This document shows positions 1,675-10,093 of a stretch of DNA of 12,033 nucleotides, one piece after another; position 1 is the stretch's first letter, and the number at the start of each line of letters is the position of its first letter. Under the pieces are notes generated by a model. The model did not search any database, was not told where the DNA came from, and saw only the letters and a program-made list of their open reading frames with translations. Origin of the DNA: a virus; the UHGV virus genome UHGV-0311374. One strand, written 5' to 3'. Both the position numbers and the translations under genes were made by a program.

Positions 1675-3794
1675 AAAAAGCGCCAAATTTAAAACACCAG
1701 CCACGTGACAAAATGACGGAAGTCATCATTTTTGCGGGTAGTGATGCGTGGGCACATGCGAAGCAGTGGCAGGAACAGGACGGGCGACTGGCTGGCGATA
1801 ACGTGCCTCCTGTCTGGCTTGGAGAGCAACAACTTGCCGAACTGGATAAGCTGCAAATTGTGCCGGAAGGCCGAAAATCAGTACGCATATTCAGGGCCGG
1901 ACATCTTGAGCCAGTAATGATCAAGGCGATTGGTCAGAAGCTGGCGGCGGCAGGCGTACAGGATGCAAATTTTTACCCTGATGGAATGCACGGTCAGGAG
2001 GTGGAGAACTGGCGCGAATATCTGGCCCGTGAGCGGCAGAATCTTTCTGATGGTCTGGTTATTGAGTTTCCGGTAAAGAAAAAAGATACCGGAAGTCATA
2101 GCGATGACGAATTAAAGCCACGCGTTGAAAGTCGCGCCGATGGTGTTTTCTGGGTAACGCCCAAAGTGGATAAGCAGTCAGGCGAAATTATCCGGCCTGA
2201 GACGTGGTTATGTTCTCCGCTTGAACTACTGGGAACGGGGACGATCGGTAAAGAGCATTACCGCGTGATGCGCTGGAAAAAAACCGCAAACCATGAAGTC
2301 ATCACAATGGCGATCCCGTGTGGTGGTATCGGCGACCGTGACGGCTGGCGGTTACTTAAAGATCACGGGCTGAACGTGACAACCAACGGCAAATACAGGG
2401 CAATCCTGGCGGACTGGATGCAGTTAAGCGGAAGCCATGAGGAATGGCAGTTAAGCACAACAACGGGCTGGCATTTTGGCGCGTACATCATGCCGGACGG
2501 TTCGATCATTGGTGATTCTGAAAAACCGATCCTGTTTACCGGAAAAAGCGCCGCGATTAACGGTTATTCCGTGGCGGGTACGGCGGAGGGCTGGCGCGAG
2601 AGTGTGGCGCGGCTGGCTGGCGGTAATGCCTCAATGATGCTGGGTGTGGCAACGTCACTGGCAGCGCCTTTAATTGGCCTTGTGGGTGCTGACGGCTTCG
2701 GGGTGCATCTTTTCGAACAGTCATCGGCAGGTAAGACCACCACGCAGAACATCGCATCAAGTTTATGGGGAGAGCCGGACGCGCAGCGGCTGACCTGGTA
2801 CGGCACGGCGTTAGGTATTGCCAATGAGGCCGAGGCCCATAATGACGGGCTTTTACCACTGGATGAGATAGGCCAGGCCGGAAATGCGCGGGAAGTGTCA
2901 ACGTCTGCTTATACGCTGTTTAACGGTTCAGGGAAATTGCAGGGGGCGAAGGATGGCGGCAACAGGGAGATCAAACACTGGCGAACGGTGGCAATCAGCA
3001 CCGGAGAAATGGACGTTGAGACATTCCTCAAAAGTGAGGGGATAAAAGTTAAGGCGGGGCAGCTTGTCCGACTGCTTAACGTTCCGATGGAAAAAGCCAC
3101 GAAATTTCACGAATACAGCAACGGTAAGGAACATGCTGACGCGTTAAAGGATGCCTGGACAGCAAATCACGGGGCGGCGGGTCGTGAGTGGGTTAAATGG
3201 CTGGCAGGCCACCAGCAGGAGGCAAAGGACACGGTAAGGGAATGCCGCGAACGGTGGCGCAACCTGATACCGGAGAGTTACGGCGAGCAGGTCCACCGCG
3301 TGGGTGAACGTTTCGCCATACTGGAGGCCGCGCTTGTGCTTTCCTGTCATGTAACTGGCTGGGTCGTGCAGGAATGCCGCGACGCGATACAGTATAACTT
3401 TAATGCCTGGGTGAAGGAGTTCGGCACGGGTAACAGGGAATTTAAACAGATGGTTGAACAGGCTGAGGCGTTTTTGTCGTCGTTTGGGTTTAGCCGCTAC
3501 CTTCCGTACCCCAATACAGATGAGCGTGATTTACCGATTAAAGAGCTTGCCGGATACAGAAAAGGGAGCATTCGCAACGAAGATGACGAGATGCGCTATT
3601 ACACGTTCCCGCACGTGTTTGAGAGTGAGATAGCGAAGGGATTTAATCCGGCGCATTTTGCGCGTGCCCTGGATGCTGCCGGAATGCTGGAGAAGGGAAG
3701 CGATCGCCGATACAAAAAAAAGGCGCTGGGCAAGATTGGGGGTAAGCAGCATGTTTTTTACGTGCTGATGTTCCAGCCTGATGATGAAGATTAA
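1671..3794 (+). CDS. Replication initiation protein, primase/helicase-like (P4 alpha / PICI Pri-Rep type), 707 aa
   Basis: Long ORF; ATG at 1671 preceded by GGAGAG (the track's 1656 start is an upstream GTG); Walker A-like motif SSAGKTT in FEQSSAGKTTTQNIASSLWG; sits immediately upstream of an iteron array, as expected for a satellite or plasmid-type initiator. Confidence 0.8.
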   Translation: MKKAPNLKHQPRDKMTEVIIFAGSDAWAHAKQWQEQDGRLAGDNVPPVWLGEQQLAELDKLQIVPEGRKSVRIFRAGHLEPVMIKAIGQKLAAAGVQDANFYPDGMHGQEVENWREYLARERQNLSDGLVIEFPVKKKDTGSHSDDELKPRVESRADGVFWVTPKVDKQSGEIIRPETWLCSPLELLGTGTIGKEHYRVMRWKKTANHEVITMAIPCGGIGDRDGWRLLKDHGLNVTTNGKYRAILADWMQLSGSHEEWQLSTTTGWHFGAYIMPDGSIIGDSEKPILFTGKSAAINGYSVAGTAEGWRESVARLAGGNASMMLGVATSLAAPLIGLVGADGFGVHLFEQSSAGKTTTQNIASSLWGEPDAQRLTWYGTALGIANEAEAHNDGLLPLDEIGQAGNAREVSTSAYTLFNGSGKLQGAKDGGNREIKHWRTVAISTGEMDVETFLKSEGIKVKAGQLVRLLNVPMEKATKFHEYSNGKEHADALKDAWTANHGAAGREWVKWLAGHQQEAKDTVRECRERWRNLIPESYGEQVHRVGERFAILEAALVLSCHVTGWVVQECRDAIQYNFNAWVKEFGTGNREFKQMVEQAEAFLSSFGFSRYLPYPNTDERDLPIKELAGYRKGSIRNEDDEMRYYTFPHVFESEIAKGFNPAHFARALDAAGMLEKGSDRRYKKKALGKIGGKQHVFYVLMFQPDDED

Positions 3795-3816: not shown

Positions 3817-4154
3817 TGCGGGTTATGCGGGTTATCCTGTGTATAAGTGTATTAAGTGCATGAATATAAAGGAAACCAATAACCCGCACGTAACCCGCAA
3901 AAGGGCATTTATAACCCGCAAAAGCACGATTATAACCCGCAGGCGAATAACTGAAGTAACACCGGACAGTCATGCGTAACCCGCAGAAAAAACCCCGTTT
4001 GCGGGTTATTTTGAGCGTTTTGCGGGTTACGTGGTGAGCAAATAATAAACAGGGTGTTTTGCAAAATACTGATATAAAAGGATAAAAAATGGTTAGCACG
4101 CTAAGATAACCCAATAACCCGCATAACCCGCACATGTTTCTATATATATATATA
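3817..4154. repeat. Iteron array and AT-rich tract, putative origin of replication
   Basis: 9-bp TAACCCGCA in forward orientation at 3880, 3891, 3912, 3933, 3977, 4115, 4124 (degenerate ATAACCCAA at 4106) and as reverse complement TGCGGGTTA at 3817, 3826, 4000, 4021; followed by (TA)7 at 4141-4154; directly downstream of the primase gene. Confidence 0.75.
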
Positions 4155-4837: not shown

Positions 4838-5110
4838 ATGGTACATGACCGCATAGCGGAGGAACTCGAGGCAAAAGGCTTTTACCGGAGGGCGTCGGCG
4901 CGATGGGGTGAAGTCATGCTGCTGGTGGAGACAGACAAGGAACGGCATCAGGTTACGATGCGACGGCTGGAATGTTCCAGGAAGGCACAGAAGCCACCGG
5001 AGCCGCCGGATAACTTCGGAGACCTGAGAAAGGCAGTAGATCGCACTTATGCTGAAATGGGTATAGATGGTGTAAGCGATGAAATATGGCGTAATTACCC
5101 AGACAGCTAA
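4838..5110 (+). CDS. PerC-family-like transcriptional regulator, 90 aa
   Basis: ATG at 4838 with GAGGGGG upstream; N-terminus MVHDRIAEELEAKGFYRRASARWGEVM resembles the conserved N-terminal region of PerC-type activators as I recall it; followed by a terminator. Confidence 0.5.
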   Translation: MVHDRIAEELEAKGFYRRASARWGEVMLLVETDKERHQVTMRRLECSRKAQKPPEPPDNFGDLRKAVDRTYAEMGIDGVSDEIWRNYPDS

Positions 5111-5115
5111 TCAAC

Positions 5116-5138
5116 AGCCGGAGCAATCCGGCTTTTTG
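5116..5138 (+). terminator. Rho-independent terminator-like hairpin
   Basis: AGCCGGA (5116-5122), loop GCAA, TCCGGCT (5127-5133), then TTTT, 6 nt after the stop at 5108-5110. Confidence 0.6.
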
Positions 5139-5359
5139 TCATTTTTTGTAAATTATTTGTTCGTGGTTGTTCCACGTTGTTCACTGACAGGATCGGCATA
5201 TTTTACCCGAACTGAATCATGAGTATTCTCGCCCGTGGTGCCAGGACGCTGGGGCCACTTTCCCGCCTGTTAATGTGCTCGCCAATATTCATTACCAGGC
5301 GGGAAAACGATCGGTGCGATTGCTGATTTCCTTATGAAAAACGGTTGAGTTTTTGCCGC

Positions 5360-5396
5360 GTCCTGGAGTTCCTTACTTAACCCCAGGACTTTTTTT
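5360..5396 (+). promoter_or_regulatory. Hairpin plus T7 run abutting the capsid start codon; the only SD-like AGGA lies in its 3' arm
   Basis: GTCCTGG (5360-5366) pairs with CCAGGAC (5383-5389) around a 16-nt loop, followed by TTTTTTT (5390-5396) and ATG at 5397. Confidence 0.35.
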
Positions 5397-6554
5397 ATGC
5401 CGAGAATAATCGAATTACGCCAGCAGAAAACCGCCATTAAAAATCAGATGCGCGACATGCTGGAGAACGCGGAAAAAGAAAACCGCAGCCTTAACGATGC
5501 TGAGGGCGCAAAATTTGACGAATTACGCGCTAAAGCTGAATCACTCGATAAAGACATCTCCCGCCTTGAGGCCGTTGCTGACGAAGAGCGCAGTAAACCA
5601 GGCAAAAACAGCCAGACCACTGACCCCGCCGAACTACGTCACTACATTCTGACAGGTGAAACCAGCGCATTGAGTACAGGCGTTCCCGCTGATGGTGGTT
5701 ATACCGTTATCCCCGAACTGAACACCGAAATCATGCGAATGCTGACGGATGAATCCACCATGCGCCGCATCTGTACCGTGAAGAAAATCAGCAGCAACGA
5801 GTTTAAGCAGCTTGTTTCCGCTGGCGGTGCGACCGTTAACCACGGTGAAGAGGGTAAGGCACGCGAACAGACCAGCACCCCGCAGATTAACGAGGTGAGC
5901 ATTAAGCTGTATCCGGTCTATGCGTACCCGCGCACCACGCAGGAAATCGTGGATTTTTCCGATGTGGACATCCTTTCATGGCTGACGGGCGAGATTGGCG
6001 ACACCTTCACGGAAACCGAAGAAAGCGATCTGGTTGTGGGCGACGGTGACAAAAAAGCAAAAGGCTTTTTATCCGTACCCCGTGCAGAGAAGAACGACAA
6101 AGAGCGTGATTTTGGTACGTTGCAGGTAATTAAACCTTCCGAATCTCTGGCGTGGACATCTGCGGACCCGCTGATCGACCTGAAATTTGCATTACGTAAA
6201 AAATACCGCAAAAACGCGGTCTGGGTGGTTAACTCCACGACGGCGGCAAAACTCCAGAAGGTGAAGAACGCGAACGGTGATTACATCTGGCGTGACCGTT
6301 TACAGGCGGGTGATCCTGATACGTTGCTGGGCCTTCCGGTCGAATATCTGGAGTTTATGCCTGATAACGTTATTGCCCTGGGTGACTTCAAACGCGGTTA
6401 CTACATTGTTGATCACGAAACAGGTGTTCGCACCAGACCGGACAACCTCACAGAGCCGGGCTTCATCAAAATTTTCACGCAGAAATATTTAGGCGGTGGC
6501 GTGGTGGATTCGAACGCGATCAAGATTCTGGAACTGCCACAGGACGACGATTAA
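5397..6554 (+). CDS. Major capsid protein, HK97 fold, with N-terminal coiled-coil delta/scaffold domain, 385 aa
   Basis: N-terminus MPRIIELRQQKTAIKNQMRDMLENAEKENRSLNDAEGAKFDELRAKAESLDKDISRLEA is typical of a delta domain; GGYTVIPELNTEIMRMLTDESTMRRICTVKK matches the conserved HK97-family capsid region; followed by protease and portal genes. Confidence 0.85.
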   Translation: MPRIIELRQQKTAIKNQMRDMLENAEKENRSLNDAEGAKFDELRAKAESLDKDISRLEAVADEERSKPGKNSQTTDPAELRHYILTGETSALSTGVPADGGYTVIPELNTEIMRMLTDESTMRRICTVKKISSNEFKQLVSAGGATVNHGEEGKAREQTSTPQINEVSIKLYPVYAYPRTTQEIVDFSDVDILSWLTGEIGDTFTETEESDLVVGDGDKKAKGFLSVPRAEKNDKERDFGTLQVIKPSESLAWTSADPLIDLKFALRKKYRKNAVWVVNSTTAAKLQKVKNANGDYIWRDRLQAGDPDTLLGLPVEYLEFMPDNVIALGDFKRGYYIVDHETGVRTRPDNLTEPGFIKIFTQKYLGGGVVDSNAIKILELPQDDD

Positions 6555-9007: not shown

Positions 9008-9447
9008 TGCCGTGGCAACCATTAAGACGATGTACAGAACCAGGCTGCAACAGGCGAGTTAAGTCCGGCAAGTGTGAGGAGCACAGACGCAGCGCACGCC
9101 AGCAGCAGGACAGCCGGAGAGGCAGCAGCAGGGAGCGAGGGTATACGAGGCAGTGGGAGAAATACCGCGCCATGTATCTGAGTAAAAACCCGTTATGTGC
9201 GCATTGCCTGGAAAAAGGAATATACACGCCCGCCGTGGTGGTGGATCACATTATCCCCATCGATGGCGGTAATGATGTTCTCTTCTGGCCTGAGTGGAAT
9301 CATCAGCCATTGTGCCAGGCGTGTCATAACCAGAAAACGAAATGGCTTGATCCGGCAACAAAAAGCAAGCGTGCCGCAGGTGGATTTCATGAAGAGGAAG
9401 AACGGGCCGCTAACCGCAATAACTGGATGTATGACGCTGATGAATGA
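9007..9447 (+). CDS. HNH endonuclease (terminase-associated), 146 aa
   Basis: TGATG overlap with the upstream gene; Cys-rich N-terminus (CTEPGCNRRVKSGKCEEH) and HNH core CAHCLEKG...VVDHIIPIDGGNDVLFWPEWNHQPLCQACHNQK; sits just upstream of terS/terL as in HK97-like cos phages. Confidence 0.85.
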   Translation: MPWQPLRRCTEPGCNRRVKSGKCEEHRRSARQQQDSRRGSSRERGYTRQWEKYRAMYLSKNPLCAHCLEKGIYTPAVVVDHIIPIDGGNDVLFWPEWNHQPLCQACHNQKTKWLDPATKSKRAAGGFHEEEERAANRNNWMYDADE

Positions 9448-9736
9448 GCTGGAACAAAACCGCCTTATCCGTGGACTTATAAGGCAGCGTGACGCATGGA
9501 AGACACAGGAAACAGGGCATAAAGATAAAGCGTCAGGACGCGCAGAACGCATCACAGCGACGCGATTAACCGACCGTGACCGCGAGGTTATGGAATGTTT
9601 CCGCAATCGCTGATGAGGTAGCCGGACGGGGTGGGGGGAGTTTTCAGGACGAACCCGACCCCGCCCAGAACCGACCGCCTCCTCAAATTTTTATGCACGG
9701 GAATTTTTTGAAAAATAATCTGGCGAAAAAATAAGC

Positions 9737-10093
9737 ATGGCAAGACCACCGAAAGCCCCCGCCTACCTGGATGACATCGCCGTGAAGCAGTGGCGGGAAA
9801 AATCGCGGCAGCTTGCGGAACGGGGAGACCTGACCCCCGCCGACTGGAGCAATCTGGAACTGTATTGTGTCAACTACTCCATTTACCGGAAAGCCGTCGC
9901 AGACCTTGCGGCGCGCGGGTTCAGCATTGTTAACAGTCAGGGCGGCGAGAGCAGAAACCCCGCATTAAGCGCGAAATCAGACGCTGAAAGGGTGATGATA
10001 AAAATGGCCTCCTTGCTCGGTTTTGACCCGATAAGCCGTCGTAAAAATCCACCGGAAACAGAAGAAGAGGACGAGCTTGACCGCCTGGAATAA
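9737..10093 (+). CDS. terS: Terminase small subunit (P27-family-like), 118 aa
   Basis: Product fits the P27-type small terminase pattern (W...LTPADWSNLELYCVNYSIYRKA...SRNPALSA...LLGFDPISRRK); directly upstream of and overlapping the large terminase. Confidence 0.8.
   Translation: MARPPKAPAYLDDIAVKQWREKSRQLAERGDLTPADWSNLELYCVNYSIYRKAVADLAARGFSIVNSQGGESRNPALSAKSDAERVMIKMASLLGFDPISRRKNPPETEEEDELDRLE

Follow-up and report, generated by a model that had tools for sequence, protein, structure and literature searches.

A putative AlpA-responsive promoter joined to an attenuator-like leader RNA ahead of the capsid operon of EcCIEDL933-type satellites

Phage-inducible chromosomal islands (PICIs) that form their own capsids (cf-PICIs) are unusual satellites: they make filled capsids of their own, for which no helper phage is needed, and take their tails from many phages, a way of life that spreads them across species. 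DNA-filled, tail-less capsids are produced in non-lysogens, and overexpression of alpA alone drives the reproduction of EcCIEDL933 (10.1101/2025.02.11.637232). In EcCICFT073, AlpA turns on the promoter of its own gene and is required for induction (PMC6092414). In the literature that we searched, no description was found of how the capsid operon of a cf-PICI is switched on. The closest described regulators are small excisionases that also act on transcription. TorI, the excisionase of KplE1, recognizes GTTCG-type sites, three of which are separated by 2 nt and adjoin a -35 element (PMC2951348). Vis of P4, which belongs to the AlpA family, works as an excisionase and also regulates late promoters, according to work cited in PMC2603039 (Polo et al. 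1996). Here we analyse positions 5111-5396 of the virus genome UHGV-0311374, a stretch of 12,033 nucleotides read on one strand and called the window throughout. These 286 non-coding bases precede the major capsid gene of a cf-PICI.

We propose that 5111-5396 is a self-contained control region of the late operon, in which AlpA-type activation of a weak promoter is combined with an attenuator-type leader; judging from sequence comparison, we give this reading a somewhat better than even chance of being correct. For transcription to start, at about 5235-5237, an activator of excisionase-like type encoded by the island, most likely AlpA, would have to occupy three TTGTTC repeats located at about -57 to -77. 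The nascent leader would then adopt one of two folds. In the first, a hairpin at the 5' end of the transcript (H1) forms together with the final hairpin of the leader, transcription terminates at a run of seven uridines (U7) and the Shine-Dalgarno sequence (SD) of the capsid gene is masked. In the second, 5241-5249 pair with 5358-5366, transcription reads through and the SD is free. The leader would thus work as an attenuator setting or gating the output of the 6.5-kb operon, and the choice between the folds might be biased by a protein, by the speed of RNA polymerase or by nothing at all. Activation of AlpA type would tie capsid synthesis to induction of the island and not to a late signal of the helper phage. 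The comparisons given below indicate that the region is a real, conserved and satellite-specific control module; its mechanism is what we infer from them.

The identity of the element follows from its genes. A Pfam scan of the window finds a DUF4222 gene, a DUF927 primase, a single-stranded DNA-binding protein (SSB) and a PerC-family gene, and then, after the 286 non-coding bases, the packaging genes: HK97-type capsid, prohead protease, portal, head-completion and connector proteins, HNH endonuclease, TerS and TerL. A replication module with a PICI-type primase is accordingly followed by the element's own packaging genes, and tail and lysis genes are lacking, as in islands of the EcCIEDL933 type. 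From the end of perC to the start of the capsid gene (5080-5420), the window is 99.7% identical to an Escherichia coli O157:H7 island located between roxA and phoQ, which at the matching locus carries the cf-PICI gene set (EcCIEDL933, O-island 51) with int and alpA upstream. By these sequence comparisons the window is an EcCIEDL933-like capsid-forming PICI, and its gene content together with the identity to the O157:H7 island places 5111-5396 at the junction of the replication/accessory module and the packaging module.

The region is widespread among such islands. It is matched, entirely or in its first part, in 778 of 5,426 complete E. coli genomes, and 360 of these contain the whole of it. 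A diverged E. coli island, ZH063 (L002, about 74% identity), retains every element. A second class of relatives (class B, the window belonging to class A) comprises other E. coli satellites, such as L003, and islands of Citrobacter, Erwinia and Rosenbergiella, with capsids 66-74% identical; the upstream part of the region is common to both classes and the leader sequence is different. A sequence profile built from class-B regions alone matches window positions 5142-5222 with E = 3.9e-6. An exact 19-mer from the class-B hairpin H1 occurs in at least 120 IMG/VR contigs, mostly 15-17 kb long, and the matches listed include 111 unique leaders; since these class-B loci were gathered by motifs, conservation of H1 within class B is by construction. 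A search of the fetched loci for further leader classes, based on the conserved box described below, returned chance matches only, and a relative from Gilliamella (L129) is too diverged for alignment. Apart from three satellite-looking records, neither class has a counterpart in a collection of 50,697 phage records, and derivation of the region from a phage late promoter was rejected because this collection gave no match. The gene immediately upstream varies greatly among relatives (phrog_1957, PerC, ProQ/FinO, membrane proteins and others), too much for that gene to be the cognate regulator, a candidate that was likewise rejected. The commonest gene directly upstream of the box is phrog_1957, found there in 64 of 93 long loci.

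The preliminary description of this region, drawn from the letters of the window alone, had placed a terminator at 5116-5138, and a terminator scan picks up the same element. Its stem AGCCGGA/TCCGGCT (5116-5133) has seven pairs, five of them GC, closes a loop of four and is followed by TTTTTGTCATTTTTT; a GC-rich stem-loop with a U-tract is found for the second time at 5360-5389 with U7. The control region of the capsid and packaging genes is, as predicted from the first of these structures, insulated from the genes upstream. Between it and the repeats lies the box TTTGTAAATTAT, a fourth element which is more conserved than the decamers and which the preliminary description overlooked. Of 173 loci, 167 keep it 76-78 nt away from H1, and the box is invariant across islands whose AlpA and Int proteins differ widely. 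No convincing further copies of it occur elsewhere in the elements. Inspection of box and decamers by eye gave no match to sites for IHF, CRP, LexA or Ogr/Delta (TGT-N12-ACA), and a partial ArcA-like resemblance only.

The three TTGTTC decamers at 5157-5186 (TTGTTCGTGG, TTGTTCCACG and TTGTTCACTG) are present as the preliminary description reported them. An exact hexamer repeated three times with a 10-bp period is found once in the window and in none of 300 dinucleotide-preserving shuffles, and the decamers are invariant in nearly every class-A variant. Three head-to-tail repeats spaced by about one helical turn, with related arrays in the att arms of complete relatives, form an array of the kind used by excisionases (recombination directionality factors). 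The att sites themselves lie outside the window, and the arrays of the att arms were seen in two complete relatives, L004 and EcCICFT073 (L305): in these, the att core has TTGTTC-type triplets next to it at either end, and five to six units stand between int and alpA. At 24 of 26 positions the late decamers agree with an inverted array in the int-alpA spacer of the O157 element, and the int-alpA spacer of EcCICFT073 holds six inverted TTGTTC-type units. In the K-12 sequence, the TorI sites CAGTTCGTCA, TGGTTCGCTT and CAGATCGTTG have the same core and 10-bp phasing as the decamers of the window. AlpA is the likeliest candidate for the protein that binds the decamers, on account of the TorI-like core and phasing, the arrays at att and between int and alpA, the autoactivation by AlpA, the precedent of Vis and the effect of alpA overexpression.

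Some further features of the repeats were noted in relatives. In the CFT073 and O157 islands, attL and attR share the core GTGCAACGATCGGTGTAGTTAATGGTGTAGT, which contains a doubled GGTGTAGTTAAT (L305 3330-3410 and 14555-14630; L004 around 1797 and 17034). Both cores are preceded by diverged TTGTTC-type decamer triplets; the triplet on the roxA side would fall outside the island if crossover takes place in the shared core, which hints at a remnant of an earlier insertion. Other tandem arrays of 10-11 bp lie upstream of alpA in L195 (about 3184-3330) and L199 (about 724-930), namely GACACGTAAT, GGTTCATNNN and CTATTGTCNN, and arrays ahead of alpA appear to be general among PICIs, with lineage-specific sequence. 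In many class-B islands (L126 at 3965-4000, L127, L128) the third decamer, TTACCCC, is the 5' arm of a terminator-like hairpin (CCCCTGTCTCTGACGGGGG plus TTTTCTTT). The T-run of this hairpin overlaps the -35 region, so that the terminator of the upstream operon comes after, not before, the repeats.

Several observations weigh against AlpA as the binder and against the mechanism that we favour. The sequence of the sites does not track the variant of the protein: AlpA allele and decamer type are not related one-to-one, the TTGTTC triplet occurring with at least four AlpA clades and a single AlpA clade with several decamer types. Covariation of AlpA specificity with the decamers was rejected for lack of this one-to-one relation. 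In loci of other decamer types a second copy of the late array was not found, and no TTACCC-type arrays were found elsewhere in loci of that type; the arrays beside alpA in L195 and L199 are unlike the late decamers. The invariant box is without a candidate binder, and the island integrase, whose arm DNA-binding domain belongs to PF13356, could by its domain content be the protein that binds the att-proximal arrays. Such observations lead to another reading, unlikely in our judgement, in which promoter and leader are as proposed but the repeats are bound by an agent other than AlpA: the arm-binding domain of the integrase, a host response regulator of the ArcA or OmpR kind, which use 10-11-bp direct repeats, or no specific protein, the repeats being phased T-rich DNA that gives curvature. 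The loose coupling between AlpA allele and decamer type fits it, as does the constancy of the box beside very different AlpA and Int proteins. So do the TTGTTC arrays that flank the att core on both sides in islands whose integrase has an arm domain, and the resemblance of the TTACCC-type units of some lineages to the IntS arm sites of KplE1. Box and first decamer together also agree at 12 of 16 positions with the direct-repeat consensus of ArcA. ArcA repeats are, however, spaced by 11 bp and those of the window by 10 bp, and we know of no precedent for an integrase acting as an activator of late genes. Activation of island transcription, moreover, has been shown for no island protein other than AlpA (PMC6092414), and the six-unit array of EcCICFT073 lies within the int-alpA region whose response to AlpA was shown by experiment.

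Two other candidates were rejected. PerC is no plausible binder of the repeats, as TTGTTC arrays occur without PerC in nine class-B loci, EcCICFT073 has PerC but neither the box nor the decamers, and the PerC model is TPR-like and helical, without a helix-turn-helix (HTH). The AlpA antiterminator of Pseudomonas does not serve as a model, being a larger protein of 21Q-like fold with a C-terminal HTH, unrelated to the 62-aa AlpA of PICIs (PMC9371919).

No convincing sigma70 promoter had been recognized in the preliminary description. Comparison changes this picture: in 111 unique relatives a conserved promoter-like pair, TTTAC(C/A/T)-16-TAT..T, keeps a constant distance both from the box and from H1. 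Over this set of 111 unique regions, conservation of TTT in the -35 element reaches 90% or more, and 108 of them have a TA(T/C)NNT hexamer at -11 to -6 from H1. The same elements are found in L002, L003 and L126-L128. In the window, the decamers are followed after 15 nt by TTTACC, and TATTCT is followed after 5 nt by H1. Because the -35 and -10 elements and their distances are conserved and the class-B profile matches, the late promoter is placed at 5202-5229, with the first base of H1, about 5235-5237, as the probable start of transcription. Two points speak against this assignment. The pair TTTACC-16-TATTCT agrees with the consensus at 8 of 12 positions, below the scan threshold of 9 of 12, and an alternative exists for this lineage, with the third TTGTTC (5177-5182) as the -35 element, a 16-bp spacer and TATTTT (5199-5204); this alternative pair is not common to class B. 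We found no paper describing this promoter or leader in the literature searched, and that on OI-51/CP-933C, PchE and RgdR contains nothing on transcription of the capsid operon. In EcCICFT073, a classical PICI at the same chromosomal site, the late control region is different (L305 10860-10965): a near-consensus promoter, TTGCTC-16-TATAAT, runs directly into the hairpin ATAACTGGATG..CATCCAGTTAT with T6; next come the SD of a small gene and, beyond this gene, the capsid-like gene. This layout, with a promoter-proximal terminator, is suggestive of antitermination control.

An activator-dependent late promoter had been suspected from the start, and a weak promoter below a repeat array fits activator dependence and has comparative support. 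The accompanying idea, that a helper phage signal is sensed here, found no support. It would require that a late activator of the helper binds the repeats, or that a Q-type antiterminator passes the two terminators, and we regard it as very improbable. A promoter, a leader of about 160 nt and a terminator before the first late gene do recall lambda pR'-tR', and in EcCICFT073 a strong promoter leads directly into a terminator hairpin ahead of the capsid gene. The window promoter is, however, weak and not strong and constitutive, and no -10-like pause element was seen in the initial transcribed GUGGUGCCAGG. Likewise, features of a Q-dependent (qut-type) late promoter were looked for in the window and, beside the weakness of the promoter, no TAnnnT-like element was found in 5235-5250; only the downstream terminator is there. 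Helper phages do induce these islands, but this induction has been mapped to alpA expression (PMC6092414). Filled cf-PICI capsids are made in non-lysogens, and alpA overexpression is enough (10.1101/2025.02.11.637232), which makes helper sensing at this region unlikely, and the region is not present in the phage records.

The DNA downstream of the -10 element is predicted to encode a conserved, covarying and structured leader RNA, hitherto undescribed. The leader of the window folds with -74.8 kcal/mol (z = -5.1), and no shuffled sequence folds equally well. In H1, four of nine pairs are changed on both sides between class A and class B, and its GACG is invariant in 28 sequences; neither this hairpin nor its 9-bp long-range complementarity appeared in the preliminary description. 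The inverted repeat 5259-5269 / 5296-5306, which did, is real: its perfect 11-nt arms extend to arms of 17 nt (5259-5275 / 5290-5306, complementary at 16 of 17 positions). It is not a separate operator-like element but the second hairpin, H2, of the transcribed leader. A perfect 11-nt arm was reached by 2 of 40 shuffles, which is marginally beyond chance, so the reality of the repeat rests on conservation and on compensatory changes, seen at nine of ten basal pairs in 28 aligned leaders. The sequence of H2 is unrelated among lineages, and a long hairpin is always kept.

An alignment of 28 diverse leaders was made with MAFFT and not fitted to structure, and RNAalifold recovers H1 and H2 from it. 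In this alignment 92.8% of cells are paired, as against 85.4% in shuffles (none of 500 as high), and pairing falls to about 40% when the partners are slid. A covariance model built from 22 class-B leaders only has its top match in 75 kb at window 5235-5330 (16.8 bits, E about 0.005, the E-values being roughly calibrated); it aligns H1 from 5235, its first position, and H2 at 5259-5306. L002 and the Gilliamella relative were missed by this model. No Rfam 15 family matches 5111-5400 at E up to 1, nor any class-B or diverged leader.

No conserved leader peptide was found either. The candidate open reading frame (ORF) from 5220 has its ATG changed to GTG, third codon positions are not favoured among the substitutions that separate the window from L002, and this reading was rejected because the ORF is not conserved between the two. 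A C4/isrK-like antisense RNA targeting the leader was rejected too: pairing of the C4 RNA with the window leader shows no complementarity beyond shuffles, and C4 homologues are present in seven loci only. The window itself carries a C4 antisense RNA (RF01695, 72 bits, 746-833) with an a1/b1 target element (RF03163, 629-678) and, at 642-720, an isrK-like match below threshold; together (629-833) these make up a P1/P4-type immunity RNA module within the island, and the same module lies at 1784-1988 in L002. The linker between H2 and the final hairpin is commonly a C-rich unstructured stretch in class-B leaders (for example CCUCCCCUCCAAGCGCU), which the class-A leader of the window does not have, and the L003 version includes GCUCCCCCG, a complement of the a' element found in C4 RNA of the window type. 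This class-B linker may be a site of Rho loading or an antisense target.

The leader ends, as the preliminary description had noted, in a hairpin (5360-5389) with T7 (5390-5396) and AGGA in its 3' arm before the capsid ATG; this AGGA, the SD, occupies 5385-5388, 8 nt before the ATG at 5397. L002 keeps the hairpin with an altered upper stem and T8, and class-A variants show changes from G-C to G-U and from A.C to A-U. Segment 5241-5249, CCAGGACGC, comprises the 5' arm of H1, its loop and one further base, and is, base for base, the complement of the final hairpin's 5' arm, so that two mutually exclusive RNA folds are possible. The counterparts of the two long-range segments in class B are AGACGTGA and TCACGTCT. 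The GACG:CGTC core is invariant in all 28 sequences, and the neighbouring pairs change together from one class to the other (A-U to G-C, U-A to C-G). The six aligned long-range pairs are 98% paired over the 28 sequences, with two compensatory changes between class A and class B, and the partner segment always falls in the 5' half of the SD-holding hairpin, in both classes. In predicted minimum free energy (MFE) structures, the long-range helix is preferred for transcripts ending at 5366-5378, and H1 with the terminator hairpin wins from 5384-5389 onward. A terminator (5360-5389) thus has a mutually exclusive upstream antiterminator (5241-5249:5358-5366), and the geometry of the modelled leader is that of an attenuator, in which H1 is the anti-antiterminator and the terminator also masks the SD. 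As to an input that such an attenuator would sense, neither a conserved leader peptide nor an aptamer match nor significant pairing of C4 RNA was found. The possibility of translational control of the capsid gene, raised earlier, stands as far as sequence comparison goes: the SD is predicted to be masked in the final hairpin and freed in the alternative fold, with comparative support for both.

Against the attenuator it can be held that, at full length, the terminator fold is favoured over the antiterminator fold by 10 kcal/mol; read-through would then have to rely on kinetics or on a factor. The U-tract is missing from the majority of relatives, namely those of class B. As the U-tract is present in the lineage of the window only, control by termination would be lineage-specific, and SD masking and complementarity to H1 would be the general features. 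The long-range covariation rests on two lineages, and at the DNA level the segments equally form an inverted repeat. From these points a reading without any switch can be derived, which we hold to be rather unlikely: H1 and H2 would stabilize the 5' end of the mRNA, the final hairpin with U7 would be a leaky terminator or a translational enhancer, and the complementarity would be incidental or a DNA operator. Stem-loops at the 5' terminus are known to stabilize mRNAs, for example that of ompA. The stability of the terminator fold, the absent U-tract and the little covariation of the class-B final hairpin (one of nine pairs changed on both sides) agree with this reading, and complementarity alone cannot separate RNA pairing from a DNA inverted repeat. 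Yet GACG and its partner CGTC are constant in 28 diverse leaders, with flanks that covary between lineages, and the partner segment keeps its place in the SD-holding hairpin. Among leaders, the two segments stand 74 to 101 nt apart, without helical phasing, which disfavours DNA looping and argues for RNA pairing. Furthermore, the antiterminator is predicted for exactly that phase of transcription which precedes the emergence of the terminator's 3' arm.

A bolder variant of the switch would make the leader a new, satellite-specific class of cis-regulatory RNA, in which H1 docks an island factor and thereby frees 5241-5249 to open the terminator/SD hairpin; the making of capsids would then be gated at a stage later than initiation. 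PerC might be that factor in the lineage of the window; we regard this variant as a speculation with little chance of being right. The perC gene is directly upstream in 46 of 46 class-A islands versus 6 of 105 class-B islands. An AlphaFold model of PerC (pLDDT 82.5) consists of helices throughout, resembles TPR-like hairpins most closely in structure and contains no HTH. The predicted fold is a helical hairpin of a protein- or RNA-interacting type, and PerC probably acts, judging from the model, through protein contacts and not by sequence-specific DNA binding. The module is a possible native target of the poorly understood PerC/PchE protein encoded next door; should PerC be the factor, the native role of the PerC/Pch family of virulence regulators would be the control of satellite late operons.

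The features of the region and the two genes that border it are collected in Table 1.

Table 1. Positions of the predicted control elements and of the flanking genes in the window
Feature	Position	Strand	Basis
perC/pchE-like gene (PerC family, 90 aa), last of upstream operon	4838..5110	+	Pfam PF06069, E = 1.6e-44; O157 relatives annotated as PerC family regulator
Intrinsic terminator of perC operon	5116..5138	+	Terminator scan; stem 5116-5122 / 5127-5133, then T-run
Conserved box TTTGTAAATTAT	5145..5156	+	173 of 180 related loci (at most 2 mismatches)
Three head-to-tail decamers TTGTTCNNNN, candidate excisionase-like binding array	5157..5186	+	Exact triple; centres near -77, -67 and -57 relative to the predicted start
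Putative late promoter, -35 TTTACC (5202-5207), 16-bp spacer, -10 TATTCT (5224-5229)	5202..5229	+	Positional conservation, 111 unique promoter regions
Hairpin H1, GACG loop, at predicted 5' end of transcript	5235..5258	+	MFE folds; covariation between class A and class B
Hairpin H2 (inverted repeat of the preliminary description), 17-nt arms, 14-nt loop	5259..5306	+	MFE fold; compensatory changes in 28 leaders
Small hairpin H3, low confidence	5309..5328	+	MFE folds; not conserved in L002 or class B
GCGTCCTGG, 3' partner of putative long-range antiterminator pairing and 5' arm of final hairpin	5358..5366	+	9 of 9 complementary to 5241-5249
Final hairpin (5360-5389) and U7 (5390-5396), terminator-like, predicted to mask SD	5360..5396	+	-14.1 kcal/mol, z = -3.6
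HK97-type major capsid gene, first of packaging operon	5397..6554	+	Pfam PF05065, E = 1.7e-61; downstream families

The neighbourhood of the region shows some additional differences and details. In O157:H7 and Shigella copies, perC and the repeats are separated by another 354 bp that include a 74-aa gene (phrog_1957), and the window is the deleted form. The extra segment is bounded by two near-identical terminators (L001 6031-6400 compared with window 5111-5140), and its absence from the window suggests deletion through recombination between the flanking terminators. A RefSeq pseudogene named "trigger factor, frameshifted", which covers the 3' end of perC and the terminator in O157:H7 (L001 6000-6115, about window 5080-5195), looks like an annotation artefact, and a 47-aa ORF at window 5079-5222 has no family match. 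Farther downstream, a non-coding gap of 290 bp separates the HNH endonuclease and TerS genes (window 9447-9737), a place where HNH-dependent packaging systems of the HK97-like kind usually have their cos site.

Control of the capsid operon is by these results narrowed to a module of 250 bp with defined parts that can be mutated: box, repeats, promoter, H1, long-range pairing and terminator. The module is conserved in hundreds of islands of Enterobacterales, O-island 51 (OI-51) of O157:H7 included, and absent from the phage records searched. It offers a sequence signature for the detection of such satellites and adds a candidate for a new structured leader RNA.

Among known systems, the repeats and promoter of the region recall attL/PintS of KplE1 (CPS-53), where three head-to-tail, 10-bp-phased sites with a GTTCG core stand beside a promoter and are bound by TorI, a small winged-helix excisionase that also regulates transcription (PMC2951348). 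TorI itself is below the threshold of the Pfam AlpA family. Unlike the arrangement of the window, TorI represses, and its sites abut the -35 element of the integrase promoter inside attL; the window array lies 15 nt upstream of the -35 element of the capsid operon and 7 kb from att, and would be expected to activate. A similar parallel may be drawn to Psid/PLL of P4, where, according to work cited in PMC2603039, an AlpA-family protein of a satellite regulates the promoter of capsid-related genes. P4 differs in that its late promoters rely mainly on Ogr/Delta at TGT-N12-ACA, absent from the window region on reading, and in that it has no capsid genes of its own and no such leader is known from it; the likeness comes from the literature and not from sequence similarity. 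In the lambdoid pR'-6S RNA-tR' segment, too, a promoter is followed by a short non-coding leader and by an intrinsic terminator, and the first late or structural gene comes just after these. In contrast to pR' with Q, the promoter of the window is weak and located below repeats, no Q-binding element or sigma-dependent pause signal is recognizable, a helper factor is not needed and the leader has an antiterminator pairing of its own. With classical attenuators and the expression platforms of riboswitches the leader would share three mutually exclusive helices in order, H1, 5241-5249:5358-5366 and the terminator, with the SD in the 3' arm of the last; unlike them, it has no conserved leader peptide, recognizable ligand-binding aptamer or Rfam match. 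The layout of H1 and H2, two adjacent hairpins at the 5' end of a long phage-type transcript with terminators downstream, also resembles that of the put RNA of HK022, an antiterminator RNA that acts in cis and consists of two neighbouring stem-loops; put depends on specific features of its stem-loops, whereas H2 has no conserved sequence. By analogy with these systems, the region resembles an excisionase-regulated promoter of the kind of KplE1 PintS and P4 Psid/PLL, joined to a leader of the attenuator type.

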